This document shows positions 43,950 through 63,733 of a DNA stretch of 64,000 bases, one piece after another; the first letter of the stretch is position 1; every line of letters begins with the position of its first letter. The notes beneath the pieces are model-generated. The model was not told the DNA's origin. It saw nothing but the letters and a program-made list of their open reading frames with translations, and ran no database searches. The translations under genes were made by a program, and so were the position numbers. Source of the stretch: an uncultured Acidobacteriota bacterium (GTDB lineage Bacteria > Acidobacteriota > UBA6911); NCBI GenBank assembly GCA_963809485.1, contig CAWEJX010000008.1, forward strand, positions 160,001 to 224,000, given 5' to 3'.

Positions 43950-44025
43950 GACACTCGTTCATAGTCTGTTTCCTTTCAAGCAAACCGGTGTTGTTGTCAG
44001 AGCTGTTGACATAAGGAGTTCTCCG

Positions 44026-45732
44026 TCATTTCGATTCCGCGATCGAGCGCATCGCGCGGCGACAGCATGCCGCCGGAGATGTTTTTCGCCTTGAACCCGT
44101 TCTGCAGACAGGATGCGCGTCGCGTAGTAGGCGCGCTGGGCGGAACGGCAGATGACGTGGATCTCGCGGTCGCGGGGAAGTTCGCCCAGGCGGCTGCGGA
44201 GTTGCGGCAGCGGAATGTTGACCGCGCCCGGCACGCTCTCCACGACCAGTTCGACCGGCTCGCGCACGTCGAGCAGGAACGCGCCGTCCAGCGAATCCCA
44301 GTGACTGAGCGGCATGTCGCCGCGCAGGACATTCGCGGCCATCATCCCGGCGAAGTTGACCGGATCCTTGGCGCTGCCGAACTGGGGCGCATAGCACAGC
44401 TCGGATTCTTCCAGGTCGTAGATCGTCGCGCCCATCTGGATGGCCATGGCCAGGGCGCTGATCCGCTTGTCCACCGCCGGGCCATCCTCGCCCAGCGCCT
44501 GCGCGCCGAGGACTTTTCCGTTGGATTTGCGGAAGATGAATTTCAACCCGAGCATCTTGGCGCCCGGGTAGTATCCGGCGTGCGAATTCGGGAACAGGTA
44601 GATCTTCTCGTAGTCCGTGTCTCCGAGCTTCTTGAGCGTTTTCTCGCTGACGCCGGTCCAGGCGGCGGCGCCCCCGAACAGCCCGATGATCGAGGTGCCC
44701 TGCGTGCCGCGGTAACGGGAATCGCGCCCGCAAATCACATCGGCCGCGATCCGGCCCTGCCGGTTCGCCGGCCCGGCCAGCGCAATCAGGCTCCACTGGC
44801 CGGTCCCGAAGTCCTTGACTTCGATGGCATCGCCGACGGCGAAGATGTCCGGGTCGCTCGTGCGCATGTGCTCGTCCACGCGGATGCCGCCGCGCTCGCC
44901 GATCGCGAGGCCGGCCGACTTGGCCAGGGTGGTGTCCGGCTTCACGCCAATCGCGAGGATGACGATGTCCGCCGGAAACGTTTTGCCGGAGCTGGTCAGG
45001 ACCTCGATCGCGCCGCCGTCCAACTGCTTGAATCCGACCACGCCGTCATTGGCGACAACCTGGACGCCATGTCTTGTCATGTGGCCCTGGACGAGGCACG
45101 CGATCTCCGGGTCCAGCGGGGACAGGACGTGATCGGGCTTCTGGATGAGGGTCACATCGAACCCGAGATGGACCAGGTTCTCCGCCGTCTCCAGACCGAT
45201 GAATCCGCCGCCGACGACCACCGCGCGCGGTCACTGGCTTGACCATCTGAATCCCCGAGTAGCTGAACATCCCCGCGAGAAACGTCGTGCCTTTTTCAAT
45301 CCACTCGCGGATCGTCCTCGCGTCGGGCACGGTTCGCACATGGAAGATCCCCGGCAGATCAATGCCCGGCAGGGGCGGATGAACCGAGGCCGCCCCGGGC
45401 GACAGCACGAGCTTGTCGTAGGACTCGGTCGTGACCTCGCCGGTCTTGACATTGCGCAGATTCACGGTTTTCTTCTTCGGATCAATCGCGATCGCCTCGC
45501 AGTTCGTGCGCGCATCGATCGCGAACATGGCGCGAAACATCTGTTCGGTCCCCACCAGGAGGCTCGATTCCTTTTCAATCACGCCGCCGACGTGGTAGGG
45601 CAGTCCGCAGTTCGCGTACGAAACGTACGGTCCGCGTTCGACCATGAGGATTTCGGCCTTTTCATCCAGCCTGCGCAGGCGCGCCGCACACGACGCTCCG
45701 CCGGCAACTCCGCCAACGATGATGACTTTCAT
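44026..45732 (-). CDS. CoA-disulfide reductase-rhodanese fusion (Cdr-RHD/Npsr-like; frameshifted)
   Basis: IVGGVAGGASCAARLRR, redox Cys motif SYANCGLPY, GGGFIGLE, ELCYAPQFGSAKDPVN, and a C-terminal rhodanese segment LDVRE...ICRSAQR. Confidence 0.9.
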
Positions 45733-45913
45733 CTGTGAACCCCCTGTCCGACTAATAAGCTGCTGTTTCGCCGCAGGTCCAGCGTCCCAATAAACCTCCT
45801 CATTGCCTTGGAGTTTCCAGTTTCCAGTTTGAAGGGCTTTAACTGGGAACGCTAAACGGGTAAAGGCGTCAGCAAGCTGCCGCACTCCAAAGCATGTGCG
45901 CCAAAAAGCTCAC

Positions 45914-47346
45914 TTACCTGTCCTCCTCGAATTCAGCTTCGACTTTGCCGGCCCGGATGGCGCGCTTCAGCGCCGCGTGGTCCTTCTCGTTCTGGTCCGC
46001 GTAGGCGACGGAAAAGGATGCGAGCGCCCGGTCGAAAGTGTCGCTCGTCCCCATATACCCGCTGAGCTGGACCGACAATCCCGCGCGCGCGTGGGAGAGC
46101 GCGAGCGCCCTGCCGCACCAGGTGGCGTAGAGTTCCATCTCGGAGGAGCCGAAGGTCTCGACGCGGATGCTGATTTTGATGTCCCTCAATTGGCGGACGA
46201 AGTAGTGGCGCTTGTCGTATTGCCCATGGTCCAGCCGAGGAACATGTCGCTGGCGGGCTGCATGCGCCGGTAGCCATCCACGACGCGCTGGCCGTGGTTG
46301 GGAAAGACGCTCGCGCCGGCGTACGGCTCCAGCACCGAGGCGCGCGCCTCCTTGACCTGAAGGAAGAGTGGATCCCCTTCGCCAGCCAGAAGAGCATCAC
46401 CCAGCAGAGGTCCCGACGCTTCCGATTCCAACTACTTTGATGGCGGCATCCTTAATCTCGTATCGGTCCAGCAGAGACCGGTAGGAGGACGGCAAGGTGT
46501 CGCGGTACCGTGCGAATGCGTCCATGAGATTTTTTGGATTATGCCCGGAGGGTGGCCTTCGCGCGTGAAAGATTGTCGGGAGTTGTCCTTGATGAGGGGC
46601 ATTTCCCCTTTGTGCTCCACCAGCTTCGGAAAGATGTCCTCGGCAATGCTGCGCGCACGCTCCTTCTGGAGACGCATCAGGGCTCGCTTACGGAGCCTGG
46701 GATTCTTGATGCTCGCCACCAGGTCGTCCGCATCCAGCGCCAGGTACCACAGCTCCAGCGTATTCATCTGGCTGAACTCGGCCATGGACTCGCGGTAAGT
46801 GCGAACGCAAGTCATAACCACATCCTTCGCCACAGCATTCGCTCAGGCCGTTGTCCCGGCAGGCCACCACGAAGCTTGCGGCGAGGCGCTTGACGTCCCA
46901 CTCCCATGGCCCCGGGAGCGTCTCGTCGAGGTCGTTGATGGAGAAGATGACCCGCCTCTCCGGCGTGGCGAATCCGCCGAAGTTGCACAGGTGTGCGTCC
47001 CCGCAGCACTGGACACGGATGCCCGAGACCGGCGTGGACGCGAGGTCCGAGGCCATGGTGAGCGCCGCGCCCCTGTAAAAGGTGAACGGCGATCGCGCCA
47101 TGCGCCCGTGGCGCAAGGGAAGCAGTTCGGGCAATCGCCCCTTCTCCGCCTTAAGGACCAGCTGGACCGCATCGGGACGGTCTTTGGGCGCCTTCCAGAT
47201 GGCGTGGGAGCTCCTCGGGCAGGCATCCCGCAATCGCTTACCGAGGGCGCGGGCCTCGTCACTGCGAAAGCCCCTTCGCTGAGGCTGGATTCCGCGCGGG
47301 GGGTGGGGCTGCACTTTGCGTTTCTCTCTTGGGTTTCGTGGTCCAT
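45914..47346 (-). CDS. DUF2252-domain protein (frameshifted)
   Basis: RHGRMARSPFTFYRGAA, CGDAHLCNFG, INDLDET.PGPWEWDVKRLAAS, LFLQVKEA and QPASDMFLGW across several frames. Confidence 0.88.
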
Positions 47347-47507
47347 GACGACCTGTCCCTTCATTGTTGCGCTCCCTGACGTAGTGAGGACGGCTCTCCA
47401 GAGCCGTCCAGGCAACGTCTATCGGACGGGTCTGCGAGACCCGTCCTCACAGGCTTGCTATCCCTCGCTACAAAACGTGGAAGCCTCCAATTCGTTCATC
47501 AGCTCAG

Positions 47508-48023
47508 CTACAGGGCCTTAGGAAGTATCATCCGTTCGGGAGTGAGGTTGTAGGTCCACGGACAGCCCGAGTTCTTCCAGCCGTTCTTCAACCGCTGGCC
47601 CTGAAAAACGCTGCCAGGATCCTCGACCGTATCGCCTTCCATGCCATCGGTGATGTTGTAAGCATGCTTGAATCCCGCCTGGGCGAGCAGGTTGACAGCG
47701 ATGGCGCTGCGGCCGCCGGACCGGCACATCACCAGGATCGTGTCGTCGGGCTTGGCCACTTCCTTCACGCGGGATACGAAATCCAGGAGGAGCTTCATGG
47801 GGAACTTCCCCTTTTCAGCGTCCCACTCGTACACCTGAGCAGCGATAGGAATTTTCCAGGCCATGGCCGGATGGCCTACAAAGAGAAATTCCTCAGGGGT
47901 TCGGACGTCGAGAATTTTCACCTTTTCAGGATCGGCCTTCCACTTCTCGTAGGCCTCCTTCGACGTCACATAGAGTCCCAGCACCGTCTGCTTTTCTTTG
48001 GGGATTTTATTGGGTTCAGTCAT
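47508..48023 (-). CDS. Rhodanese-like sulfurtransferase, copy A
   Basis: ILDVRTPEE.LFVGH and active-site loop MCRSGGRS. Confidence 0.9.
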   Translation of the reverse strand: MTEPNKIPKEKQTVLGLYVTSKEAYEKWKADPEKVKILDVRTPEEFLFVGHPAMAWKIPIAAQVYEWDAEKGKFPMKLLLDFVSRVKEVAKPDDTILVMCRSGGRSAIAVNLLAQAGFKHAYNITDGMEGDTVEDPGSVFQGQRLKNGWKNSGCPWTYNLTPERMILPKAL

Positions 48024-48090
48024 ATTCAGTTCCTCTTTTCAATTCCTCGGTCTTCACTGTTTGTCGCGCTTGATTTTGCCTTGTGTGGCT

Positions 48091-48121
48091 GACGGCGCCC
48101 TCCGGCTTAGAGGGCGCCGTC
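48091..48121. terminator. 12-bp stem-loop between the DszB-like gene and rhodanese A
   Basis: GACGGCGCCCTC-CGGCTTA-GAGGGCGCCGTC is a perfect stem. Confidence 0.45.
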
Positions 48122-48215
48122 GGAAATTCCTGCTCTGGATGCCGATGCATAGATTCTTTGCCGCGAAATACCAGGAAGAGCACACTCGCAAGGCTTTAAT
48201 TGCCTTTCCTTCCGG

Positions 48216-49385
48216 CTAGCCAATCCGTTGGCCTGACTTCAGCAGCTCAGTCGCATCGGGAAGCTTTGCCGTGGTGACCTTCTTCCATTGTTGCTCGAGC
48301 AGTTCCTTAGCTGCCTGTTCCAGGAATTCCGGCGCGGCCCACTTCTGCACATCGAAGTCGTGCTTGATGTAGCCGTGGCTCAGCATGAAGTCCTTGCCTA
48401 TCTCAACAGAAACAAGGTTCTGGGGCGACAGGTTGGGAACCATATCGATGTGCTCTATGCCCCTGAAAGTATGGTCGACGTCGAGGTAGAAGGTTTGCTT
48501 ATCAAGGATAGCTGCAGCAGCACGCTTGTGTTCATTGGCCCAGCGCCCTACTTTGATCATACCTTTCATGAATGTTACGGCGAGCTCAGGATGCTTCTCA
48601 GCCATCACGTCGGAGCAGGTGATGGCGGCAGGGATGTTGGCCACCTGCAGCGTCCAGTCGGGATACCTCGACAGGTCTTCGATAGCCTTGAACTTGCCGG
48701 TTGCTTCAGAAAGCTGCTGCAGCGGGCCGGTCTGCATATACATCGCATCTATGACGCCCTTCTCCAGCGCCGTCTCCAGCGGACGGAAAGCCAGGTCGTG
48801 CTTGTGGTCACGCCTCAGCCACAATTCTGACGGATTTTCCATGAGCGGACCCATCATTTCGGGCTTATCGTACCAGTCGTCGGGGTAGGGGAATTCCACG
48901 ATTTTTACATCCTTGCGGGTCATGCCGTTCAGCCTCAGCATCAGCTCTATGCCCTGTTCCTCCTGAATGCCCCACCAGTCGGTCTTGATGTTATTCTGGC
49001 TTCTTGAAAGCCCGATCTTCTTGCCTTTCAGATCGGCCATCCGGTAGATATCGTCCCTGGAGCGAACCAGCATGACGCCGCCTTCGCGCGGTGCATGTGT
49101 TACACCCAATAATCGTGTCCTGCGTATATCCGCCTGAACATGAATGGGTGGGAAAAGACCGCCAAAGCGGATGAGGTTGTCGAGGTTGTGAACGTAGTGC
49201 GGGTACCAGTCGTTCTCGGCACGGCAGCGGAGATAAAGGTAATTTACACCCATCTTCTTATACTCTTCCTTGGTCCAACCCAGTTCCTGGTCGACATTGC
49301 TGGCGGACACGAGGGGACAATTGGTGTAGTAGACCTCTTTCCAGTTCAACGGAACCGTGCTGAGTTTTTTAGCTTCCTTAGTCAT
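48216..49385 (-). CDS. DszB-like desulfinase homologue (periplasmic-binding-protein fold, no signal peptide)
   Basis: YYTNCP, HYVHN.DNLIRFGGLFPP and RTRLLG parallel the DszB segments TYSNCP (Cys27), HFTYD (His60) and TRFGGEIPP (Arg70), recalled from memory; also DLKGKKIGLS. Confidence 0.75.
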   Translation of the reverse strand: MTKEAKKLSTVPLNWKEVYYTNCPLVSASNVDQELGWTKEEYKKMGVNYLYLRCRAENDWYPHYVHNLDNLIRFGGLFPPIHVQADIRRTRLLGVTHAPREGGVMLVRSRDDIYRMADLKGKKIGLSRSQNNIKTDWWGIQEEQGIELMLRLNGMTRKDVKIVEFPYPDDWYDKPEMMGPLMENPSELWLRRDHKHDLAFRPLETALEKGVIDAMYMQTGPLQQLSEATGKFKAIEDLSRYPDWTLQVANIPAAITCSDVMAEKHPELAVTFMKGMIKVGRWANEHKRAAAAILDKQTFYLDVDHTFRGIEHIDMVPNLSPQNLVSVEIGKDFMLSHGYIKHDFDVQKWAAPEFLEQAAKELLEQQWKKVTTAKLPDATELLKSGQRIG

Positions 49386-49507
49386 GACTGTGTTCCTTTC
49401 GTTTTTTACGCATTCCGCGGACAGCGGTAATGGCAAGTTGTTTTAAACCAGGCCCGGCTTTGTGCCTGGATTGTTGAGTTGTCTCTGATTCCTATCTTGT
49501 CTCTGTG

Positions 49508-49900
49508 TCATTGTTTTTTTGCGCCGGATATGGTTTCGGAGATGGCGGACAGCAGGACATCGCGATCCACTGGTTTCCTCAGACATACGGAGGCTCCAAG
49601 CGCAAGCACCCGCTCGGCCGTGCCGGGTTCGTCATGAGCGGTGATGACGACGACCGGCACGGGCATCTGTTGGAAGCGGAAATCCCCCAGCAAATCAAAG
49701 CCATTGAGATCCGGCATGTGCAGGTCCAGCAACAGGCAATCCGGCGCATGTAAGCCCAGTGCAGCGAGGAACTCCTCACCGCCCGCATACTCCTCGACAC
49801 GGAAGCCGCAGCAGGAAAGCAATCGTCGAAGCGCCTTCCGCATTTCCGGCTCGTTGTCCAGCACGGCAATCACTGGTTGTGTCATTTGCGTCTTTGGCAT
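49508..49900 (-). CDS. Single-domain response regulator receiver
   Basis: AVLDNE, LLLDLHMPDLNG, ITAHD and LRKP. Confidence 0.9.
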   Translation of the reverse strand: MPKTQMTQPVIAVLDNEPEMRKALRRLLSCCGFRVEEYAGGEEFLAALGLHAPDCLLLDLHMPDLNGFDLLGDFRFQQMPVPVVVITAHDEPGTAERVLALGASVCLRKPVDRDVLLSAISETISGAKKQ

Positions 49901-50098
49901 CGCAGCAAAAGCCTATAGGAAATCGGTAATGCTATGCTACTAGACCTTAGTGTAGTCCCCTATTTCAGGGGCCTAACCCGGCGGACGTGGACGTAATCGG
50001 CTTATTTTTTCGCAGTCCACGGAATCCAAACCATGCCCAGGCGTGCGAAAATTTTGAGTCAGACTTTTCGGCATCGCGTGTCCCACTCAAAGACTCGG

Positions 50099-50617
50099 CT
50101 AGGGAACCTTAGGAAGTATCATCCGGTCGGGAGTGAGGTTGTAGGTCCAGGGACAACCCGAATTTTTCCAGCCATTCTTCAGCCGCTGGCCCTGGAAAAC
50201 GCTGCCCGGTTCCTCGACCGTATCTCCCTCCATGCCATCGGTAATGTTGTAAGCATTCCTGAATCCGGCTTGGGCGAGCATATTGACGGCTATAGCGCTG
50301 CGGCCGCCGGACCGGCACATGATCAGGATCGTGTCGTCGGGTTTGGCCACTTCTTTCACCCTCGAGACGAAATCCGGCAAGGGTTTAATCGGGAAAGCCT
50401 TCTTTTCGGCGTCCCATTCATACAGCTGAACGGCGATGGGAATTTTCCATGCCATCGCCGGATGGCCGACGAAGAGAAATTCCTCGGGTGTGCGGACGTC
50501 GAGGATCATGACCTTTTCGGGATCGGCCTTCCACTTCTCGTAGGCCTCCTTCGACGTAACATAAAGTCCAAGCACCGTCTGCTTTTCTTTAATAAGAGTT
50601 TCATTCGATTCAGTCAT
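50099..50617 (-). CDS. Rhodanese-like sulfurtransferase, copy B
   Basis: Near-identical to 47508-48023; MCRSGGRS loop. Confidence 0.9.
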   Translation of the reverse strand: MTESNETLIKEKQTVLGLYVTSKEAYEKWKADPEKVMILDVRTPEEFLFVGHPAMAWKIPIAVQLYEWDAEKKAFPIKPLPDFVSRVKEVAKPDDTILIMCRSGGRSAIAVNMLAQAGFRNAYNITDGMEGDTVEEPGSVFQGQRLKNGWKNSGCPWTYNLTPDRMILPKVP

Positions 50618-50668
50618 ATTATGTCCCTCCGTTAATCGTTCTTACCCTTGTCCGACAGCGCAGCGGCC

Positions 50669-53633
50669 TCACCCCGTATGGATGCCCGCTCCCACGGCAG
50701 GACGATCGGCCCGTCGGCGCGCGCACGACGGGCAGAGCTCGCGGTCTAGAAGAGCCGCCATATGATCCGGCAGGCGCAGCCGGACGAAATCCCGGTGTGC
50801 AGGAGTCTGGGTCGGCGCTCCACATTCGCTGCAAACCAGCAGCGGCTGTTCGCGCACAACGGTTCCCGTGATAATCGTGCGCCGCACTCCATCCCGATCC
50901 TCAATTCGGATCGCGCCCGTCGGGCAGACCTGCGTGCAGGCGCCGCAGCCGATGCATAGCTCCGCAGGCCGCGTGAAGTCGAAGTAGGCAAGCCGGCCGG
51001 CCGGCGTGTCGGCCATGCGCAGCGCCTCGACCCCCATCTCGCTGCAGGCGGCCATACACAGGCCGCAGCCGATGCACAGGTCGCAGCGCAGGCAGCGGCG
51101 GGCCTCGTCATGAGCCATCGCGTCGGTCAGGCCCTCCTCGATCCGGACGTAGTTGCCCTCGCCGAGAACTTCTTCGACACTCCTCTCGGGCATCGCGGCA
51201 CGGCGCAGGCTGTGTGCGATGGCCGGCCGCGATGTCCAGGGGCGACACCTCGGCGCGGCGCACCGGCTTGCCGGTGGCGGCGTCCATAACCGACCCGCGC
51301 AGCCAGGCGTCGATGGAAGCCGCGGCGATCTTTCCGGAGCGGATAGCCTCAACGGCCGTCCGCGGGCCGTGCTCCACGTCGCCGCCGGCGAAGACGCCCG
51401 GGACCTTTGTCATCAGGGTCTTCCGGTCCGTGACAAGGAAGCCGCGGTTGGTCTCGACCCCGCTGCCTTCAACGATCGTCAAGTCCGTGCCCTGGCCGAC
51501 GGCGAGGAGCACGTGATCGGCCTCGAGCGTCAGCAGGCGTCTGGAGTCGAACTTCGGGTCGAAGCGGCCGCTCGCGTCCTTGACCTGCTCGCAGAGCTGG
51601 AAGACGACGGCGCCGTCCTCCCCGACGCTGACCGGGCCCCAGCCGGGATGCAGGTTTACCCCTTGCGCCACGGCGGTCTCTATCTCGCCCGGGCTGGCCG
51701 GCATCTCGCGGCGTTTCTCCAGGCAGACCATGTCCACATGCTTCGCGCCCTCCCGCAATGCCGTCAAGGCGACGTCGATGGCGACGTTGCCGCCGCCGAT
51801 GACCACGGCCCGCGGCCCGACCCGCACGGTTTCGCCGCTGCGCACGGCGCGCAGGAAGTCGATGCCGCCGAGCACGAAGGGTTGATGGACGCCTTCGATC
51901 GGGATGTGGCGTGAGCGCTGAATGCCGAGGCCGAGAAACACCGCGTCGTAGCCCTTGCGGAAAGCCTCGATGCTCTCCACCTTGGAGTTGGTGTGAATTT
52001 GAACTCCCAGCAGCCCGGATCTGGTCGAGTTCCTTCTCGAGCAGATCGGGCGGCATGCGGTACGCCGGGATGCCGTAGCGCAGCATACCGCCGGCCTTCT
52101 CCTGCGCCTCGAAGACTTCGACCTGGTGACCGAGGGTGCGCAGGAAATAGGCCGCCGTGAGACCGGCTGGGCCGGAGCCGATGATGCCGATCCGCTTGCC
52201 CGTATCGGGCGCCAGTTCGGGTTTTGGGTAGCCGTCCTCGGCGAGGCAGTGCTCGGCCGCCTTGGCCTTCATCGGCCGGATGAAGACGGCACCGTCGCTG
52301 CCGCCGCGCACGCAGGCTGATTCGCACGGCGCCGGGCAGACCAGGCCACAGGTCAGCGGCAGCGGATTATCCCGCCTGATGACCTCGATGGTGGAACGAT
52401 AATCCCCATGACCGAGGTGGGCCAGGAAACTCGGGATATCGATGTTAGCCGGACAGGTGCGGTGGCAGGGCGCCGGATTGAGCTCCAGGCAGAGCCCTTC
52501 CGGGCAGGACTCACGCCGGACATGACGTTCCCACTGCTCTCGGTAGTAGCGCAGCGAACTGCCGAGCGGCCAGGCGGCCGCCAGCCCTTGCGTGGCCATC
52601 TCGAGCGCCACGCCGTCGAGTGCGGCCAGGTGGGACTGCTTCACCTCGGCCGAGGGTGATCTCGGCCACGAGACGCGCGCCGCGCGCCAGCAAACCGCGC
52701 ACCGGCGCCTCTTCGCCTTCGGCCAGCTGCCAGTGGCGATAGAGTGCGCGCCGGGTCTGTTTGACGACGCACACGCCCTCGGCCATCACCATAAGGCTGG
52801 ATGGCACAGGGACGATGCCCATGGATGCAAATGAGTGTGGCTCGCATGAAACGTTCGTCCTGGAGAACGGCAGGAAGCCACCCAGACCGTCGTCGAAAAC
52901 GAGCACGGCGTCCTGGCCTTCCACTTCGACGCCGCCCCCCCAGTTGCTCGATCTGGCTTCGCAGATTCCCGGAACGCCCAAGCTCGACCAGGCCGCGCTG
53001 CTTCATGCCGCGCCGGAGCGTCAGCAGCGACCCATCGAGGTCCGCCGCGCCAGCGAACAAAAGGGCAATCCGGCACCAGGTTTCCGGCGTGTGGATCAGC
53101 CGTGACCGGTCGGCGGCATTTGCTTCCGCCCAGCAACTGCGCCGGCAATTGCGCTGTACCTCCACCTGCATACGGGGAGTGGTGATTTGGGCGAGCGAAC
53201 GGATGGCATCGACCGTATTTAGGAAGGCGGCTTCCCGGCCGGTCAGCTCCGCCGGCAGAAGCAGCTCGACCTTGCGGCTGTCGCGCAGCCCGGCAGCGAT
53301 CAGGACGCCCTCGGCCAGCTGCCAGGGAGCTCCATCGAGAACGGCGGCCGTGCCGCGTTCCTGCGCGTCGAAAGTGGTCGCGTCGATCACCAGCACCGAC
53401 GGCCCGTGGCCGCGCAGGAATTGCCGCCAGGCAATATGGATCGGTTCACCCGCGGCGCCACATTCGGCCATGCCGGATTCCCGCAGTCGCTGCAACCGCT
53501 GCAGGGGCGCCAACGCCCGGGCCAGGGCCAAACCGGGCAGAGCGCTGTCAAGAGTCGGCGCCGGCGGGACGTCACCCGCAAGGGCAGCCCCCCCCGCATC
53601 GAGCCAGGCCGGCAGCATCTGGAGTTCGCTCAT
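50669..53633 (-). CDS. Multidomain flavoprotein: degenerate NuoF-like N-terminus, GltD-like NAD(P)H oxidoreductase and 4Fe-4S ferredoxin domains (frameshifted)
   Basis: APCHRTCPANIDIP, CGLVCPAPCESAC, IIGSGPAGL, GGMLRYGIP, IGGGNVAIDVA, VFAGGD, RCLRCDLCIGCGLC and CIGCGACTQVCP across four ORF pieces. Confidence 0.85.
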
Positions 53634-54157
53634 GCCCCCTCCTTAGCGACACCCGGAGGCTCGGCGATGAGATAACGGGCGTAACGCTCGCGACGCGGGT
53701 CCGGCGCGTCGGTGGCGAGACCAAAGGATAGGCAACCGGTCACGCACTTGGTGACGCAGGCCGGCTGGAGCCCGCCATCGAGCCGATCCATGCAATAGTC
53801 GCACTTGATCACTTTTTGGGTTGCCGGATTCCACTGGGGCGTGCCCCAGGGGCACGCAGCCATGCAGCTCTTGCAGCCGACACACACACTGGACTGGACG
53901 AAGACGATGCTGTCCTTCTCGCGCCGCTGCATGGCGCCGGTCGGGCAGGCTTTCATGCACCACGCCTCCTCGCAGTGGAAGCAGGGCATGAAGACGAAAC
54001 GCATGCGCGGATGCCCGTCGACATTAAGCGGGCCGAAGGTGACGATTTTGCACGGGGCCGGGCCGGCGCCGAGATCCTTGTTGGACTTGCAGTGAACCTC
54101 GCAAGCCTGGCAGGCGATGCAGTTGGCCTCATCGTGGCGCAGGATGTAATTGCTCAT
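53630..54157 (-). CDS. Four-cluster Fe-S electron-transfer subunit (PsrB/DmsB family)
   Basis: CIACQACEVHC, CFHCEEAWCMKACP, CVGCKSCMAACP and KCDYC...PACVTKC; ATGA overlaps on both sides. Confidence 0.93.
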   Translation of the reverse strand: MSNYILRHDEANCIACQACEVHCKSNKDLGAGPAPCKIVTFGPLNVDGHPRMRFVFMPCFHCEEAWCMKACPTGAMQRREKDSIVFVQSSVCVGCKSCMAACPWGTPQWNPATQKVIKCDYCMDRLDGGLQPACVTKCVTGCLSFGLATDAPDPRRERYARYLIAEPPGVAKEGA

Positions 54158-56310
54158 TGTTGCCCTCCCCCCGTCTGCGCGGGCTTGATTCGGACGATGG
54201 TCTCGGTCAGGGCACAACCGCCGCCGGCCGGGTCGAATTCGTAGAGCTTGCCGTGCTGAAGGCGCTGGTCGGCGACACCGACGCCGTGGGCGCGTGTGGC
54301 GAGCGGCACGGTGGCGCCATAGCCGTGAAGCATGAAGACCGCCTCGGGATGGATCCACGGCGTCACCCTGGCCTTGATGCGGCCGGAATAGCTTCCGCCG
54401 CCGTTGATCTCCACCTCATCGCCGTCGGCTATGCCGAGCGGCCTGGCACGGTCGGGGTGAACCCACAGTTCCTGTTTCGGCGCGATCTCATTCAGGATCG
54501 GATTGTTGAGGGACTGGCCGTGCGCCAGCGTCGCCGGGCGTCCGAACAGCAGGTGGAAGCGGTCGCCTGTCGGCGCCGCTTTTGGCTCGTAGGGCGGCAG
54601 GCTGGGCAACCCGGCCTTCTTCAGCACCTCGCTCTCGATCTCGATCTTGCCGGAGGGCGTTGGGAATCTGAGCTTCTCGCGCGGCGTCAGCGTCGCCGCG
54701 TCGGCCAGGCTGACGATCCCCGCCTCGCGCATCTCGGCGACCGTGACGCCGGTGCCCTCGAGCTGGTAGTTCCAGAGCTCCTCGATCGTTTCAAAGTCCA
54801 GGGCCTGCTTGATGCCCATGCGGCGCAGGATCTCGCGGAAGATCCACCAGGCCGGGCGGCTGTCGAAGCGCGGCGCGATTGCCTGGTCGCGCATGGCAAA
54901 GACCGGAATCGGGCCGTTCATCTGGCACAGGATGTTGGCGCGCTCAAGGTAGGACGACTCGGGGAGTATGACGTCAGAGAACCAGCCGGTCTCCGAGTAG
55001 CGGACGTCGATGGAGACGAGCAGCTTCAGTTTGTCCAGCGCACGTTGCATTGCCTCCGGATCGGGCATGCTGGTGAGCGGATCGTGGCGGTAGGCGAAGT
55101 AGGCGCCGATCCCGTACGGCTGCGCCGTCTCCATGGCGGCGAACAGTTGATGCAGCATGCCGATGGCCGGATCCCACTGCGGTCTGTCGGTGCCGGCGCC
55201 GTCCACCCGCGGTTCCCCAACCTTGGGCACACGGCCGGTCAGCGGCTTCAAGCCCTTGCGGCCGTAGTATTCCGGTGACTTCCCCAGCGCGCAACCGCCC
55301 GGGATTTCGATGTTGCCCATCAGCGCATTCAGGATCAGCGCCGTGCGGCTGACATAGAATGACTGCTTGTGTCGCGCCGTCATCCAGCCCGGATGGAAGA
55401 TCACGTGCGGCGCGTCGGCGGCGATCTCCTTGACGAAAGCGCGAATCTGCCCGGCGGGAAGGCCGGTGTGGCTCTCCTGCCATTCCGGCGTCGTGTCTCT
55501 GACTGCCTTACGCAGGTAGTCCATGCCGGAAACGAAGCCGGCGACGAAGTCTTTGTCATAGGCTTCCTGCTTCAGGACTTCGTGGATGATGGCAAGGTTC
55601 AGCGCATAATCGCTGTTCGGGCGCACTTGCCAGTAACGGGTGGCCTTGCATGCGGTGATGCTGGCGCGCGGATCGATGTAGGTGCAGCGCATCCCGTTTG
55701 CCATCGCACCCATGAACGCCTTGGCCTCCTTCACCATGAGCGATTCGACGATGTTGCGGCCATAAAGCACGAGGTGTTTTGTGTTCTTCAGATCGAGGAT
55801 TAGTCCGGCGTGGCTGAAACCGTAGATCGTGCGCGCGGCGTTGTGGACGTTGCCGCCGCAGGTGGCGTCGTGGTTGAAGTAGTTCGGAGAGCCGAGCGCC
55901 TGCACAAAGGTCCGGGTCAGGTCGGTGAAGAAGCCGCCGCGATCGGAAAGCGCGATGCCGCGCCCGCCGAAGGAGTCGATTGTCTCGTGCAGCTTGTCGG
56001 CGACGTAATCCAGGGCCTCGTCCCAGGACGCCCGCCGCCAACGGCCTCCGCCACGCGGGCCCATGCGGATCAGCGGCGTCTGCGGCCGCTGGTCGTCGCC
56101 GTACTGGAACGACAGGCCGGCCGAACCCTTCGCGCACAGGCTGGCGCCGATCGCCTGGTCGTGCGGATTTCCCTGCAGCCAGACAACCCGGCCGTCCTCA
56201 ACCGTCACCTCGATGGGGCAGCGCACCGCGCACATGCCGCACATGCTGTAGACCGTTCGCCGGCCCGGGACGCCCACGCCGCGCACGTTTGGTGCCATGA
56301 CAGAACTCAT
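54154..56310 (-). CDS. Molybdopterin (bis-MGD) oxidoreductase catalytic subunit, PsrA/PhsA-like, no Tat signal
   Basis: Fe-S motif CGMCAVRC...LCAKG, WDEALD, likely Mo-ligand Cys in HDATCGG, IDPR, SDVILPESSYLER, and a C-terminal MGD-binding domain. Confidence 0.9.
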   Translation of the reverse strand: MSSVMAPNVRGVGVPGRRTVYSMCGMCAVRCPIEVTVEDGRVVWLQGNPHDQAIGASLCAKGSAGLSFQYGDDQRPQTPLIRMGPRGGGRWRRASWDEALDYVADKLHETIDSFGGRGIALSDRGGFFTDLTRTFVQALGSPNYFNHDATCGGNVHNAARTIYGFSHAGLILDLKNTKHLVLYGRNIVESLMVKEAKAFMGAMANGMRCTYIDPRASITACKATRYWQVRPNSDYALNLAIIHEVLKQEAYDKDFVAGFVSGMDYLRKAVRDTTPEWQESHTGLPAGQIRAFVKEIAADAPHVIFHPGWMTARHKQSFYVSRTALILNALMGNIEIPGGCALGKSPEYYGRKGLKPLTGRVPKVGEPRVDGAGTDRPQWDPAIGMLHQLFAAMETAQPYGIGAYFAYRHDPLTSMPDPEAMQRALDKLKLLVSIDVRYSETGWFSDVILPESSYLERANILCQMNGPIPVFAMRDQAIAPRFDSRPAWWIFREILRRMGIKQALDFETIEELWNYQLEGTGVTVAEMREAGIVSLADAATLTPREKLRFPTPSGKIEIESEVLKKAGLPSLPPYEPKAAPTGDRFHLLFGRPATLAHGQSLNNPILNEIAPKQELWVHPDRARPLGIADGDEVEINGGGSYSGRIKARVTPWIHPEAVFMLHGYGATVPLATRAHGVGVADQRLQHGKLYEFDPAGGGCALTETIVRIKPAQTGGGQQ

Positions 56311-57398: not shown

Positions 57399-57658
57399 TT
57401 GAGTTCCTCCTTCGGTTGACTCAGTAAAGCGACGAATAGAGAGGTGTCGTCATCGGATATGCCCGCCAGCCCATCTTCGCCCCAGCGATATGCCCGCGAG
57501 CGGGCGTGGTCATGCGTGAAGTAATTCCAGGCATCTCCGCTTTCGCTGTAGTCTTCGCGTACGGTTCCCCATTGCCGCTCGCTCAGGTAGGGCCCCCATT
57601 TTTTCCAGGGAGCTAGTTTCGTCCGGGCTTCTTCAAGTCTTGTCGCTTCAGCGTTCAT
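57395..57658 (-). pseudogene. N-terminal fragment of a GH63/MGH1-like glycoside hydrolase
   Basis: [21 protein letters not shown]...[21 protein letters not shown] is the conserved start of these long proteins, but this ORF ends after about 87 aa. Confidence 0.85.
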
Positions 57659-57689
57659 AAAGAGTTCCTCTAAAAAGCGGGGGGAATCC

Positions 57690-57710
57690 GGGGACACTGG
57701 TGACTGTCCC
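57690..57710. repeat. REP-like palindrome (reverse copy of GGGGACAGTCACCAGTGTCCC)
   Basis: GGGGACACTGGTGACTGTCCC. Confidence 0.7.
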
Positions 57711-59034: not shown

Positions 59035-60012
59035 TCATTTCAAACCCGGGGCTGTTTGGCCACCGCGGCCAAAAGCTTCGTCGATGATGGATTGCAGGTA
59101 CTGGACCAGTTCATCGGACGGTGTTTTATAATCGTCCAGTTCGTACACAACACCCAGGTGTTCGTACTTGCCCAGGCCAAAGCGGTGATACGGTAACAGC
59201 TCATAATCAATCACGTTCTTGTGCGGGCGAATGAACGCCAGGACCGCCCGGATGTGCTCTTCGTCGGCATTGATGCCGGGAATCAGCGGCGTGCGCGCGA
59301 TAAAGTCGATGTCCGGGAACGTCTCGTACGCTCGCTTGAAGTTCGCCAGGATCCGCTCGTTGCTCACACCGGTCCACTTCTTGTGCCGCTCCGGGATCGA
59401 GAGCTTATGATCGTGAAGCATCGTATCCACATGAGGCAATACCTTTTCCACGAAAGCCCAGGGCACATTGCACGCCGTTTCGATGGCTGTATTGAAGCCG
59501 CGCTCGTGGGCTTCCTCGAGCAGCGCGGCGCTGAAATCCGGCTGCAGCAAGCACTCGCCGCCGCTCAGGGTAATGCCGCCGCCGGTCGAGCGATAGAAGG
59601 AGGCGTCCTTTTCCACCTCGTCCAGCACCTCGTTTAAGGTCATCTTCTTGCCGTACATGGAGAGCGCTTTCGGCGGGCAGAGAGAAACTAACGCCTCGTC
59701 GCAGTCGCCGGCCAGGTCCCAGTTGACGCGGACCTTGTCATCGTCGGCGCCCTCCACTACGAAGAACGCCCCTTCCGGGAAGGGAGGCTTGAGGCACACG
59801 CCGCATGCCTTCTTTCCGGTGCACAACTTGGGGTCGTAGGCCAATTCCGATTTGAAGCGGATGCTTTCGGGATTGCCGCACCATTTGCAGCGCAGCGAGC
59901 AGCCTTTGAGGAAAACCGTTGTACGGATGCCAGGACCGTCGTGGCTGCAATAGCGCTGGATATTCAAAACGATTCCGCTTGGGGCGGATGTGTCGGCTGA
60001 CTGGTTCTTCAT
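59035..60012 (-). CDS. Glycyl-radical enzyme activating enzyme (radical SAM) with a reduced ferredoxin insert
   Basis: HDGPGIRTTVFLKGCSLRCKWCGNPES, GGITLSGGE and ELLPYH; ATGA overlap with the PFK-like gene. Confidence 0.95.
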   Translation of the reverse strand: MKNQSADTSAPSGIVLNIQRYCSHDGPGIRTTVFLKGCSLRCKWCGNPESIRFKSELAYDPKLCTGKKACGVCLKPPFPEGAFFVVEGADDDKVRVNWDLAGDCDEALVSLCPPKALSMYGKKMTLNEVLDEVEKDASFYRSTGGGITLSGGECLLQPDFSAALLEEAHERGFNTAIETACNVPWAFVEKVLPHVDTMLHDHKLSIPERHKKWTGVSNERILANFKRAYETFPDIDFIARTPLIPGINADEEHIRAVLAFIRPHKNVIDYELLPYHRFGLGKYEHLGVVYELDDYKTPSDELVQYLQSIIDEAFGRGGQTAPGLK

Positions 60013-61184
60013 AGTTCCCTCCCCAGGCAAATGCCAAGTGACCGCGCGATCTGCATGAATTCGCTGTTCGCGGGCACAGTTCTGACTTTGTTGATCGCTT
60101 CCGCCAGCGGCACGAAGGTGATGTCCGGCGGGACGAATGCCATCATCACGCCATATTTGCCGGCTTGAATTGCACGTATGGCGCCGGCCCCGTAACCCAA
60201 TCCCAGTTGACGATCAACCGCAGAGGGGGTGCCGCCCCGAACCCAGGGGCCCAGGACCATTGGAAAAGTCTCCTCGGCGATCAGCAACTGCAGCCTGGTC
60301 GCCACAGACTCGGCTGCCTGACCGGATTTCTGGATGACAAATTCACTCGCATCACCGGTTGCCAGCGGAGACAGAGATGCTTTGAACGTGGATTCTTTTG
60401 CCTGTGGTTGCGGACCGTCCGTAAATCTTGCTCCTTCGGCCACCACCACCAGCCCGTAAGGCCGCCGGGGGCTAACCTTGTCCTTCAACCTCGCAGCTAT
60501 CACCCGCAGATCGCAGGGGATCTCCGGGATCAGGACCGCATCGGCACACACGGCGATGCCGGCCTGAAGAGCCAGCCAGCCGGCCTGCGCGCCCAGGACC
60601 TCGACCACGCCAATCTTCCGGGCTGACTGGGCAGCCTGGCGGGCCTTGTCGAGCATTTCAATGGTGAAGCTGAGGGCGCTGTTGAACCCGAAGGAGACCG
60701 CGGTGGCGGCGATGTCGTTCTCGATCGTGCGGGGGATACAGACAGCATTGAGCCCTTTGCGGTGGAGTCTATGGAAAATGCTCATCCCCCGGCCGCCAAC
60801 AACCGCAATCAGGCCATCAATTCGTTCCGCCTGTAGTCTTTTCAGAAGTTCATCGGACATGTCCACTTCCTCGACCATGCCGTCTTCATTCACCGTGCGC
60901 ACATGAAACGGGTCCACCCGGGCCGATTGGCCGAGGATCCCCCCGGCGGCCGGATCCAGGTTCTCGGCCAACTGGGGACTGAGTGGCACCAACCCGCCAT
61001 CGGGGTATCGATCGGGGTGAAGCAACCCGTCAAACCCATCCCGGATGCCGAGTATCTCCCATCCCAGTCTTCCTGCCGCCAGAGCCGCACCCTTGACCAC
61101 GGAATTCATCCCTGGAACGTAGCCGGCCCCTACCACAATGGCAATGCGTCTAAGAAAACCGGCATGACCTACTTCAATACTCAT
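60009..61184 (-). CDS. Phosphofructokinase-fold protein with substituted catalytic motifs
   Basis: The PfkA scaffold is present (PGMN, GIRDGFDGL, SFGFNSA, ADAVLIPE, VVVAEG, RGGTPSAVDR), but GGD, GGDG, TIDND, MGR and GHxQR are all altered. Confidence 0.85.
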   Translation of the reverse strand: MSIEVGHAGFLRRIAIVVGAGYVPGMNSVVKGAALAAGRLGWEILGIRDGFDGLLHPDRYPDGGLVPLSPQLAENLDPAAGGILGQSARVDPFHVRTVNEDGMVEEVDMSDELLKRLQAERIDGLIAVVGGRGMSIFHRLHRKGLNAVCIPRTIENDIAATAVSFGFNSALSFTIEMLDKARQAAQSARKIGVVEVLGAQAGWLALQAGIAVCADAVLIPEIPCDLRVIAARLKDKVSPRRPYGLVVVAEGARFTDGPQPQAKESTFKASLSPLATGDASEFVIQKSGQAAESVATRLQLLIAEETFPMVLGPWVRGGTPSAVDRQLGLGYGAGAIRAIQAGKYGVMMAFVPPDITFVPLAEAINKVRTVPANSEFMQIARSLGICLGREL

Positions 61185-61266
61185 GACGTACCTCCTCTAT
61201 TAAAGCGTCGCGTGTCAGACTTCATAGCGTTCCATCTTCCTGCCTCGTGATGCGGGCAAGGAGCGG

Positions 61267-61300
61267 CCGGTGCGGCGTGGCGGAGCGCCACGCGCACCGG
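61267..61300. terminator. GC-rich stem-loop just after the GRE stop codon
   Basis: CCGGTGCG(G)CGTGGCG-GAG-CGCCACGCGCACCGG; no poly-U tail, so possibly an mRNA-stabilising or partial terminator. Confidence 0.4.
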
Positions 61301-61318
61301 CGCCACCTTTCCTCAGCA

Positions 61319-63733
61319 CTAGCCGAAACTCTGCTCCGTGCGTGCGATGATTTCGTTCTGAACGCCAGGATGCAGCCTTGTGAAGAAAGCGCTGAAACCG
61401 GCTACCCGAACCACGAGGTCAGGGTACTTTTCCGGGTGTTTCTGCGCGTCCCTCAGGATGTTGGTGTCCAGCACATTGAACTGAATGTGATAGCCGTCGT
61501 GGTCCATGTAGGTCTTGACGAGGTTCAGGACATTCTCCCGGCCCTTGCGGGTTTTGAGCTGATTGGGGGGGAGCTTCAAGTTCATGTGCGTCGCGGTGAA
61601 CTTGATCGCGTCCGCACCCTTCGCTGCGGACATGACCAGCGCGGTCGGCCCGGTGACGTCGGTTCCGGGCATGGCCGACAGGCTGCCATCGGTGAGCGCC
61701 ACGCCGGCCTTTTTGCCGGTGGGCAGGGCCCCGGTCATCAGACCCATCAGGTTGTGGATGCTCTTAGTGTAGGAGTCAGGCGCCGATCTGATGTCCCGGC
61801 TGATGTAATTGCCGCCCCCCTCCACGTTCTGGAAGGCTTGGAAGATGGTCTCGTACACCCGGTGGACGAGCTTGTTGACCTCGGGGATGTCGTTTCCATG
61901 CTTGGGCGCTTCGAAGCACATCTTCCCGACGCGCTCGTATTCCCCCTCGAAGTTGGCCGCCAGGGCCTTCTTGAGCTCGGCCATGGTCAACTTCTTCGTG
62001 TCGTACACGAGGTGCTTCACCGCCATAAGCCCGTTGGCGGCGTCGACGCCGCCAACCGTGATCTGGGCGACCGTGTAGTAGTTGGCTCCACCGTTCCAGA
62101 CCTCGGTGCCGGTTTCGATGCAGCCCCCGGTGAGGATGGAGCGCCAAGTGACCGGCAGATACTCGGCACACAGAATGCTCGCGATCCACGCCTCGCGGCG
62201 GAGCGTGTCCTCGCAGAACTGGAGCTGCTTCTCGAAGGCCGCGTACAGCTCCTCGAAGTCCTTGAAGGACTCTGGATCGCCGGTCTTAGGTCCGATCTGC
62301 TGCTTGGTGCGAGGGTCAAACCCGTTGTTCAGGGTGAGCTCGAGGACCTTCCCCAGGTTGGGCTGCCCCTCCACGGGATGCCCCGTCTCGTAAGGGATGT
62401 AGCTTCCCACGCACGCCCCGATGCAGGTCCGTCGTGCCTTCTCGAGGGTGAGCCCCTTTTTGCTGTTCGCGAAGAGGTTCAAGGCTCGCTTGATCATCAC
62501 GTCGCCGTTGACGAACTGCGGCATGCCGACCCCGGTATCGATGACGTCGAGGACCTTTTCGAGGAACTTGCCGCTCATCTTCTCGGTGTAGCAGCAGGAC
62601 AGCGGCGGCTGGGGCAGCTTCAGGTACTTGGCGGCATCGAGGATCAGGTAGTCCATCTCCGCCGTGGCGTCGTCTCCATCCTCGGTGAAGCCTCCGAGGG
62701 TGATGCTCTGGCCGAGGTCCGCGGAGTTCTGGATCTTGACATACTCACCGTAGTAATAACCGATCTCGTTCAGCTTGATGAACAGGTGCTTCAGCAGGGT
62801 GGTGGCTTCCTCCGGACCGATCCGGCCGGCCGCCTTGTCACTCTGATAGAACGGCTCGAGGTTCTGGCCCAGGTAGGCCTCCGAGTAGCCGCATCCGACC
62901 TGCTCGATCTCCGCGCAGATGTGGCACAGGAAGTGGCACTGAAGGGCCTCCCGCAGCGTCCGGGCAGGATGCTCGGGCACGTGTTCGCAGACCTCGGCGA
63001 TGTCGAGCAGCTCCTGCTTCCGCTCGCCGTTCTTTTCCTTCGCCGCCATCTCCCGGGCCAGCTCGGCGTACCGGTTGGCCAGTCGGATGATGGCCCTCAT
63101 CGTGATCAGACAGGCCTCGTAGAAGTAGAACTTGGAAGCATTCGGCAGCCGCATGTCGAGGGCCTTCTGCCGCTCCTCGACTTCCTTGATCATGCTGGCC
63201 AGGCCTTCTCTGTAGACGCGGGGGTAGTTCAGGTTGCCTCCGCCGCCCGGCCACGACATGAACTCGGCGATGAGGCCGGACTTGTAGACCGGGTCCGGAT
63301 CGAAGCCGTACTTCTTGATGAAGATCTCATCGGCCCGCGGCCGCAGCGCCCACTTGTCCCAGTACTCGAGCGCCCACTGGTTCGCCTTCCGGTCCTCCGG
63401 GGTCTTCGAGTTCTCGACCGTCTTCTCCTGCTTCATCCACTCCACGTTCCATTCCGGATACGTGTAGACTGCATTGACGCTGCTCGCCATGCTGCCCACG
63501 ATGAGGTTGTCATCGATGTACAGCTTCTTCCTCTCAATCAACTGTTCGAAGAACTTTGCCCGGCGGATGATTTGCTGATAGCCGGCTGTGCCCTCGTAGA
63601 CCTCCGCCATGATGCGGACCCGCTCGTTGTCGATCTCCTGGGGCGTGTTTATGAGCTGAGCCTTCAGCCGATCGATCCGCGCGTCATCGGCTTTAATCTT
63701 ACCGGTGGATTGCTTGCTGGTTTCCGTTTTCAT
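61319..63733 (-). CDS. Uncharacterised glycyl radical enzyme (PFL-like family), about 804 aa
   Basis: C-terminal Gly loop HIQFNV...LVVRVAGFSAFF; Cys loop CIGACVGSY; AGGAG RBS before ATG 63733. Confidence 0.95.
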   Translation of the reverse strand: MKTETSKQSTGKIKADDARIDRLKAQLINTPQEIDNERVRIMAEVYEGTAGYQQIIRRAKFFEQLIERKKLYIDDNLIVGSMASSVNAVYTYPEWNVEWMKQEKTVENSKTPEDRKANQWALEYWDKWALRPRADEIFIKKYGFDPDPVYKSGLIAEFMSWPGGGGNLNYPRVYREGLASMIKEVEERQKALDMRLPNASKFYFYEACLITMRAIIRLANRYAELAREMAAKEKNGERKQELLDIAEVCEHVPEHPARTLREALQCHFLCHICAEIEQVGCGYSEAYLGQNLEPFYQSDKAAGRIGPEEATTLLKHLFIKLNEIGYYYGEYVKIQNSADLGQSITLGGFTEDGDDATAEMDYLILDAAKYLKLPQPPLSCCYTEKMSGKFLEKVLDVIDTGVGMPQFVNGDVMIKRALNLFANSKKGLTLEKARRTCIGACVGSYIPYETGHPVEGQPNLGKVLELTLNNGFDPRTKQQIGPKTGDPESFKDFEELYAAFEKQLQFCEDTLRREAWIASILCAEYLPVTWRSILTGGCIETGTEVWNGGANYYTVAQITVGGVDAANGLMAVKHLVYDTKKLTMAELKKALAANFEGEYERVGKMCFEAPKHGNDIPEVNKLVHRVYETIFQAFQNVEGGGNYISRDIRSAPDSYTKSIHNLMGLMTGALPTGKKAGVALTDGSLSAMPGTDVTGPTALVMSAAKGADAIKFTATHMNLKLPPNQLKTRKGRENVLNLVKTYMDHDGYHIQFNVLDTNILRDAQKHPEKYPDLVVRVAGFSAFFTRLHPGVQNEIIARTEQSFG

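Follow-up and report, generated by a model that had tools for sequence, protein, structure and literature searches.

Why is a protein with the fold of a phosphofructokinase (PFK) encoded between a glycyl radical enzyme (GRE) and the enzyme that activates it? The question is raised by a 64,000-nucleotide stretch of DNA from an uncultured Acidobacteriota bacterium (assembly GCA_963809485.1, contig CAWEJX010000008.1, positions 160,001 to 224,000 of the forward strand), here called the window. Positions given without a locus name are those of the window; L numbers name the individual loci that were compared. Three genes define the system:

63733..61319, minus strand: GRE gene, 804 amino acids (aa) from the ATG, with a GGAGA box 7 nucleotides (nt) 5' of the ATG
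61184..60009, minus strand: PFK-like gene, 391 aa, an open reading frame (ORF) without an internal stop
60012..59035, minus strand: gene of the GRE-activating radical S-adenosylmethionine (SAM) enzyme, the activase, 325 aa

The original prediction, made from the sequence alone, had placed a PFK-fold gene between the GRE and the activase, overlapping the activase start, and both the coordinates and the order were verified. The ATG of the activase gene and the TGA of the PFK-like gene share an ATGA overlap, and the spacer between the GRE and the PFK-like gene is 134 nt long. The PFK-like ORF had been described as full length with no stops and indeed runs uninterrupted over 391 aa; the whole 4.7-kb stretch of the three genes is intact.

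According to our analysis, there is about an even chance that the PFK-like protein is a non-kinase, probably ligand-binding, accessory partner of the activation machinery, likely in an organosulfur context. Such a role is the best supported one because the ATP-Mg half-site is lost, the sugar-phosphate half-site is partly kept, selection is strong, the linkage is exclusive, and the protein is coupled to the activase and co-varies with it. We infer loss of kinase activity, activase binding, a regulatory role and a sulfur substrate.

Is the protein still a PFK? It matches PF00365 in Pfam (208 bits, E 2e-61) and stays under all NCBIfam PFK cut-offs (TIGR02483, 244.9 vs 430.55; NF002872, 220.6 vs 253). 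The AlphaFold2 (AF2) model has the PFK fold with a pLDDT of 79.8, and its best Foldseek matches are PFKs (E 1.4e-24), with target-normalised TM-scores of about 0.90 to 1zxx, 1mto and 3pfk. A family-specific insertion of 30 residues, at about residues 257-286, has low confidence in the model.

Motifs were compared residue by residue in an alignment to the solved PFKs 1zxx and 4i4i. GGD(A/C/S)PG is the N-terminal nucleotide-binding motif of PFKs. In E. coli PfkA numbering D103 is the Mg-binding Asp of GGDGS, D127 the catalytic base of TIDND and R171 the Arg of MGR; the 6-phosphate ligands are R162, R243, H249 and R252. The five substitutions read earlier against E. coli PfkA were each found in the alignment: GGDAPGMN is AGYVPGMN, GGDGS is GGRGM, TIDND is TIEND, MGR is LGA and GH(M/I)QRGG is GPWVRGG. 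A sixth, not listed before, affects the second 6-phosphate Arg, where ETR has become ETF. Residues equivalent to R72, R162, E222 and R252 (E. coli numbering) are retained.

A scan of a genome collection returned 139 relatives, and 80 loci with 62-83% identity were kept. The same degenerate pattern, with minor variation, is present in 72 out of 72 full-length members (the window and 71 loci). The GGD position is GAG[YF] in most members and GADY in three. At the GGDGS position the family has GG[RQK]G[LM][ST], so that the Mg-binding Asp is replaced by R, Q or K. The catalytic loop is [STA]IEND, with IDND kept in five of the 72, the MGR position is LG or QG followed by a variable third residue, and the GHIQRGG position is G[PL]W.RGG. 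Two of the four 6-phosphate ligands, the equivalents of R162 and R252, are nearly invariant, as are SFGF and the R72 equivalent; R243 is replaced by F or Y and H249 by P or L. At the E222 equivalent, 55 of the 72 have E and 16 have Q. The substitutions in the window are thus family-wide, and are not due to chance or local decay. Normal PFK activity is unlikely for a protein without GGD, the Mg-binding Asp, MGR, R243 and H249.

How widespread is the arrangement? The three-gene unit is found across many phyla of anaerobes. All 80 loci are metagenome-assembled genome (MAG) or metagenome-assembly records, and their phylum names are taken from record titles, in which bin labels may be imperfect. 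The titles include Acidobacteriota/Terriglobia, Bacteroidales, Verrucomicrobiota, Chloroflexia, Nitrospiraceae, delta-, beta-, alpha- and gammaproteobacteria, Kiritimatiellia, Hydrogenedentes, Aminicenantes, Ignavibacteria and Actinomycetes, and the MAGs come from soils, peat and lakes. Using tblastn, a GRE was found upstream on the same strand in 77 out of 80 loci and an activase directly downstream in 78 out of 80. For the GRE, L060 and L063 are cut at that end; for the activase, L056 ends 328 nt past the PFK-like gene; L058 is genuinely without both. The junction of the PFK-like and activase genes is an ATGA overlap in 29 of the 51 scorable loci and 9-11 nt in the remaining 22. Only the GRE, the PFK-like protein and the activase are universal among the conserved genes of the loci.

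The median dN/dS (Nei-Gojobori, NG86, over pairs with dS 0.05-1.5) is 0.161 for the PFK-like gene (1375 pairs), 0.151 for the GRE (1014 pairs) and 0.133 for the activase (1027 pairs). The PFK-like gene is under strong purifying selection, comparable to that on the GRE and the activase. The original prediction had asked whether synteny and substitutions recur across genomes; they do, in 80 loci and in all 72 members. It had also described the gene as repurposed rather than decayed, which agrees with the family-wide substitutions and with a dN/dS of 0.16, without relaxed selection. Among 40 related genomes, a relative with at least 60% identity was found in two, one of them among the 24 genomes of the same genus; such a patchy distribution is as expected for a transferable island. 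In metagenomes, 4892 of the 8000 candidate proteins scored reach E<=1e-20, and the best 120 of these are 77-94% identical.

Where does the degenerate clade end? A search of 1.84 billion representatives gave 7354 matches, and 15 full-length representatives were compared. All seven at 44-69% identity are degenerate and all eight at 34-40% identity are canonical, a sharp sequence boundary that makes the family a clean bacterial example of the change from enzyme to pseudoenzyme. Three extra probes added 123 further loci: 106 canonical, 12 degenerate, one C-terminal fragment and four too short to class. Of the loci given by one probe (P0135), 79 have canonical PFKs and one, L113, is degenerate; they were used as controls. 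Another probe (P0130), aimed at a deeper clade in genome contigs, gave only one unrelated locus with 26% identity. L179 is canonical, with GGGD, GGDGS, MGR and KTIDHD. In the flanks of the canonical loci, a GRE or activase was found in 0 out of 106. A GRE and/or an activase adjoins the PFK-like gene in all of the 12 further degenerate loci and in the fragment, with misses only at contig ends. Homologues unlinked to GREs had been named beforehand as a result that would speak against a dedicated partner, and they were looked for: the degenerate clade is linked to the GRE or activase wherever the contig allows, L058 excepted.

The genome itself carries five PF00365 genes. Its canonical PFKs have GGGD, GGDGS, TIDND, MGR and GHIQRGG, and glycolysis is therefore independent of the PFK-like gene of the window. 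A further paralogue on contig C16 of this genome (L002:1345-2475) has GGGGT for GGDGS, MGH for MGR and GYLQRGG, with TIDND intact, and lies outside the GRE-linked clade.

Could the linkage be incidental, or the gene a decaying or ordinary glycolytic paralogue caught in an operon? Paralogues are common, as the five PF00365 genes illustrate, and public sources label close relatives '6-phosphofructokinase'. We nevertheless consider this explanation very improbable: the ORF is intact, its dN/dS is 0.16, the synteny extends over many phyla, the substitutions affect defining residues throughout the family, and canonical PFK genes show no linkage to a GRE or activase in any of the 106 loci.

What kind of GRE does the module contain? 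The protein matches PF02901 (E 6e-149) and PF01228 (E 4.8e-27) in Pfam and is below every NCBIfam cut-off, the best being HypD (491 vs 1100). The Gly motif (RVxG) is VVRVAGFSAFF in 49 and VIRVAGFSAFF in three of 52 homologues, and the Cys-loop cysteine is kept in all 52. In the window the Cys loop is IGACVGSY, without a Glu at Cys+2, and it aligns to the GCVE of HypD, GDH, PD dehydratase and CutC. The residue at Cys+2 is Gly (C-V-G) in 47 and Pro (C-V-P) in five of the 52 homologues. GRE formate lyases have CC in the Cys loop. According to the GRE superfamily review (PMC13450708, sections 5.6.3 and 5.7), C-X-E with a general-base Glu at Cys+2 is kept by GRE eliminases and isomerases, and PMC7079210 gives C-X-Q for PhdB and Ser at Cys+2 for PflB and BssA. 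The window GRE does not have the C-X-E of the 1,2-eliminases and isomerases (HypD, GDH, CutC, IslA, HpsG, YbiW). Compared with formate lyases, decarboxylases and X-succinate synthases, its A-C-V-G loop matches no motif, and no equivalog cut-off is reached. It belongs to no compared motif class because it has C-V-G, not C-X-E, C-X-Q or Ser at Cys+2. PhdB, the toluene-forming phenylacetate decarboxylase of Acidobacteria, was rejected as an identification, since it has C-X-Q with Cys482 and Gly815 (PMC7079210) and the window GRE has C-V-G. A conserved WPGGGGNLNYP loop occupies the place of the first sulfonate-binding Arg of the sulfonate lyases. The GRE is without the catalytic Glu of eliminases and isomerases, and therefore its chemistry probably is one so far not assigned. 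Its C-V-G loop without a general-base Glu suggests a new functional type.

Does the PFK-like protein belong to the GRE or to the activase? The activase matches PF04055 and PF13353 in Pfam and passes the cut-off of TIGR02494 in NCBIfam (312.8 vs 174.35). Its closest equivalog is of the HpsH type, the activase of the sulfopropanediol GRE, and is below the cut-off (345 vs 430). The cluster motif CSLRC[KR]WC (CX3CX2C) is present in 62 out of 62 activases, as CSLRCKWC in the window.

A sister clade (L088, L089, L194, L196, L198, L204) is informative. Its PFK-like proteins are 51-57% and its activases 63-71% identical to those of the window (activases 65-71% in the loci named), and its GRE is only about 30% identical to the window GRE. 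In L088:2405-9102 the order is GRE, SDR, PFK-like, activase and SBF transporter. The Cys loop of the sister-clade GRE is SGCCE(N/S)RL, that is C-C-E, and the enzyme falls just short of the cut-off of the HpsG-type model (966 vs 1000). In a comparison with the structures of IseG, HpsG and IslA the E-values range from 2.7e-229 (IseG, 5ymr) to 4.2e-221. The arginine pair of these three enzymes, binding residues according to section 5.6.3 of PMC13450708, is retained. From its sequence, the sister-clade GRE is probably a sulfonate lyase. The same PFK-like protein and activase are found with two GRE types, and the PFK-like/activase pair is therefore the constant unit.

The same picture is obtained from pairwise distances in 41 loci of the main family. 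The Spearman rho is 0.69 for PFK-like/activase, 0.11 for PFK-like/GRE and 0.23 for GRE/activase, calculated over 820 locus pairs that are non-independent, as the loci are related. These values bear on a second explanation, which would make the PFK-like protein a GRE subunit with a role like that of the small subunits of HPAD, BSS and MASS, bound to the catalytic subunit and controlling access of the activase or formation of the thiyl radical. The gene always lies between the GRE and the activase, it is under selection as strong as that on the GRE, and control of activation or of thiyl radical formation is a known task of accessory subunits (PMC13450708, section 4.2). We find a GRE subunit improbable, as PFK-like distances barely track those of the GRE, the PFK-like/activase pair also occurs with an unrelated GRE type, and the known subunits are small FeS proteins of the HiPIP or rubredoxin type (PMC13450708, section 4.2), unlike a PFK fold of 391 aa.

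A multimer prediction with the GRE and the activase had been suggested as a check. It was run for the activase with the PFK-like protein and gave a score of 0.59 (runs 0.59, 0.62 and 0.56), classed as 'weak support', with 0.00 for the best of three controls. Contact agreement is at least 44% and partner pLDDT at least 82. The mark for this score is reached by 116 out of 157 solved complexes and by 2 out of 215 mismatched pairs; 18 of the 157 solved complexes and both passing mismatches reach it with scores of 0.60 or less. The prediction used custom alignments, and the calibration is only rough.

What else accompanies the three genes? A fourth conserved gene, found in 45 of the 80 loci, encodes a protein of 379-395 aa that starts with a winged-helix-like region, continues through a Cys-rich middle and ends in an RnfB-like 2x[4Fe-4S] domain. 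It is intact in other loci and present as a remnant in the window:

L011:8105-9244 and L042:9373-10560: intact fourth gene, 379-395 aa
57720..58864, minus strand: fourth-gene remnant, 67% identity over residues 55-379

In the window an in-frame stop near 58299-58301 and two or more frame changes interrupt the gene, which is either a pseudogene or affected by a local assembly error. For 25 of the 80 loci we find two or three copies of the PFK-like gene (three in L059, L079, L080, L084 and L085), yet one GRE and one activase each. The second copy often lies directly before the fourth gene, and the one second copy inspected, L042:8200-9318, is likewise degenerate. The paralogues hint at hetero-oligomers.

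How might such a system work? We propose a self-contained glycyl-radical module of three genes, mobile by horizontal transfer, in which a PfkA-family protein would have turned into a non-kinase accessory. The fold is still that of a PFK, and of the sugar-phosphate half-site the PFK-like protein retains the IEND loop, SFGF and the R72, R162 and R252 equivalents. Its ATP-Mg half-site has been replaced, with GGD changed to GAG[YF] and the Mg-binding Asp to R, Q or K, and the MGR Arg and two of the four 6-phosphate ligands are lost. Translational coupling may ensure that it is made stoichiometrically with the activase, to which it would bind either by itself or as part of hetero-oligomers that also contain its paralogues and the ferredoxin-like fourth protein. 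There it could act as a scaffold or as a metabolite-gated regulator of the installation of the glycyl radical on the GRE, with the retained anion-binding half-site sensing a phosphorylated or sulfonated ligand. A role as a ligand-sensing scaffold is plausible. The roles considered in the original prediction were a partner of the GRE or activase, a sensor of a ligand or ATP, and a kinase of a non-sugar substrate; the results would favour the activase-side partner or ligand sensor and disfavour the kinase.

Several points weigh against an accessory role at the activase. The locus L058:4147-8345 contains PAS-LuxR, PNP_UDP_1, PFK-like and fourth genes, with a GRE and activase absent within 6 kb, and in L056 the PFK-like gene is directly followed by the fourth gene, not by the activase; adjacency to the activase is therefore not absolute. 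The score of the modelled complex falls in a 'weak' band where predictions are more often wrong than right unless the pairing is likely beforehand. Co-variation of the PFK-like protein with the activase could result from tight linkage alone, with breakpoints in the 134-nt spacer between the GRE and PFK-like genes. Finally, the conserved acidic residue of IEND, D129, R72, R162 and R252 would fit another catalytic function equally well. The nucleosidase-like PNP_UDP_1 gene of L058 was followed as a lead to SAM or 5'-deoxyadenosine and dropped, as it is present in only 2 of the 80 loci (L058 and L020).

The last of these points leads to a third explanation, in which the PFK-like protein is still a pathway enzyme with altered chemistry, e.g. 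a phosphotransferase acting on a sulfonated or phosphorylated sugar-like substrate or product of the GRE; Glu would take over from the catalytic Asp, and the donor would not be ATP-Mg. The conserved catalytic loop [STA]-I-E-N-D, with IDND in five of the 72 members, would suit an enzyme, as would the near invariance of SFGF and the R72, R162 and R252 equivalents and the E222 position, where 55 members have E and 16 have Q. Without R243 and H249 the site may suit a mono-anionic sulfonate better than a phosphate, SBF transporters and HpsH-like activases are common to both linked GRE types, and there is a precedent for a PfkA-family sulfosugar kinase in SqiK, a PF00365 protein (PMC9594981). However, the nucleotide signature GGD...GGDG of canonical PFKs is gone from the whole clade, with R, Q or K as the Mg-binding residue. 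Two GRE types with 30% mutual identity each occur with the PFK-like protein and the activase together, and it is the activase, not the GRE, whose distances co-vary with those of the protein. Two or three paralogous copies per locus are unusual for a single pathway step. We regard an altered enzyme as a serious rival, though on the unlikely side.

Which substrate could the accessory partner and its GRE serve? Several neighbouring genes, also on the minus strand, have a sulfur theme. They are given as context only, not as members of the module (43959..56310):

54154-56310, minus strand: PhsA-like Mo enzyme (NCBIfam PhsA, 500 vs cut-off 694)
53630-54358, minus strand: FeS (4Fe-4S) subunit (Pfam)
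50099-50617 and 47508-48023, minus strand: rhodaneses (Pfam)
49508-49900, minus strand: response regulator (Pfam)
48216-49436, minus strand: SsuA-family-like binding protein (NCBIfam SsuA family, 58 vs 163)
43959-45885, minus strand: CoA-disulfide-reductase plus rhodanese, split (Pfam)

The two rhodaneses, the SsuA-like protein, the split CoA-disulfide reductase (CoADR)-rhodanese and the PhsA-like enzyme are on the strand of the core and within 15 kb of it, and the same sulfur-themed families recur near the core in other phyla. By flank clustering, an SBF/BASS transporter is near the core in 34 loci, a rhodanese in 20 (22 by tblastn), PAS-LuxR regulators in 19 and a SAM synthetase in 12. For the SsuA-family-like gene, tblastn found its antisense ORF in 24 loci, and CoA-disulfide reductase-rhodanese fusions and SulP were seen in single loci inspected. 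An ACR3/arsenic identification of the SBF transporter was rejected, as NCBIfam gives weak BASS/PanS matches only. The sulfur-handling neighbours point to organosulfur chemistry and are no proof of the substrate. The substrate of the GRE is probably an organosulfur compound.

Putting these elements together, one may speculate that an unrecognised GRE class (C-V-G, no general-base Glu) cannot be activated without a pseudoenzyme derived from a PFK. The pseudoenzyme, in a complex with the activase, its own paralogues and the ferredoxin-like protein, would gate the radical by sensing a sulfonated or phosphorylated metabolite. The substrate of the GRE would be an organosulfur compound that is abundant in soils, peat and lake sediments without oxygen, and the system would have spread horizontally over more than 10 phyla. 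This full scenario is tentative, and we would not expect all of it to hold.

Other features of the locus were recorded. The cluster at 52641-56310 (minus strand) combines the PhsA-like oxidoreductase and the 4Fe-4S subunit with a 330-aa protein without a Pfam or NCBIfam match, and may be a thiosulfate/polysulfide-reductase-like complex. The ORFs at 43959-45885, 51108-52644 and 56712-57697 (minus strand) are split; they correspond to the CoADR-rhodanese, a GltD-like FeS flavoprotein and an alcohol-dehydrogenase-like protein. The splits suggest frameshifts, from sequencing error or from decay of the island around an intact core. Past the high end of the window in the same genome, L086:5185-6626 contains an AbiEii-type toxin gene (PF08843) and an upstream 213-aa ORF without a Pfam match, and an HlyD/OEP efflux pair lies between the toxin gene and the GRE operon. 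One feature is located in the spacer between the GRE and PFK-like genes:

61267..61306, minus strand: GC-rich hairpin without a T-run, directly 3' of the GRE stop

The fold of 61185-61325 has -60.6 kcal/mol and is not significant (z -1.76, 11 out of 200 shuffles equally stable). The hairpin was not scored as a terminator, and terminator-like sites in the scan occur only at chance level; a scan for sigma-70 promoters found none. The hairpin might contribute to differential mRNA stability of the GRE and the downstream genes.

Why would an accessory partner of this kind matter? To our knowledge, a GRE system requires no more than the enzyme and its radical SAM activase, with small FeS subunits added in a few cases. 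If the proposal is true, a large conserved derivative of a glycolytic enzyme wired to the activase is a new kind of component of GRE systems. The difficulty of reconstituting activases is stressed as a bottleneck in PMC13450708, and a PFK-like partner could account for activases that are hard to reconstitute. The module is abundant in metagenomes and occurs in MAGs from soils, peat and lakes, and therefore the substrate of the GRE may matter for anoxic carbon or sulfur cycling.

How does the module compare with known systems? A full-text literature search, with supplements and subscription-only papers outside its scope, found no mention of a PFK-like GRE partner among the matches listed. The terms 'phosphofructokinase' and 'PFK' occur 0 times in the 2026 GRE superfamily review (PMC13450708), and in a sulfoquinovose review (PMC9594981) the PFK term is used only for the kinases YihV and SqiK. 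This agrees with the earlier statement that no characterised GRE with such a partner was known; within the literature searched, the protein is a partner type so far not described for the GRE family.

The PFK-like protein shares fold and domain order with the PfkA family (PF00365, 'mixed' group TIGR02483), and a C-terminal extension with its canonical relatives at 34-40% identity. It differs in that the whole family has substitutions at GGD, at the Asp residues for Mg binding and catalysis (the latter now Glu), at the MGR Arg and at R243 and H249, and the 30-residue insertion and the adjacency to GRE and activase belong to its own clade.

The accessory subunits of GREs (HPAD gamma; BSS beta and gamma; MASS beta, gamma and delta), which influence activation or thiyl-radical formation according to PMC13450708, resemble it as extra non-catalytic proteins within GRE operons. 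They are small FeS proteins, whereas the PFK-like protein has 391 aa, a PFK fold without a cluster motif, and tracks the activase.

For the C-S-cleaving sulfonate lyases IseG, IslA and HpsG with HpsH-type activases, the likeness lies in the window activase, which is nearest to HpsH, in the IseG/HpsG-like GRE of the sister clade and in the common sulfur-handling neighbours. These lyases have C-X-E and a sulfonate-binding Arg, while the window GRE has C-V-G and a Gly-rich loop. SqiK, the sulfofructose kinase of the sulfo-EMP2 pathway, is compared by its description in PMC9594981. It is likewise a PfkA-family protein recruited to organosulfonate metabolism, but as an active kinase in a sulfoglycolytic cluster, whereas in the PFK-like protein the motifs for nucleotide and Mg are missing and the link is to a GRE activase.

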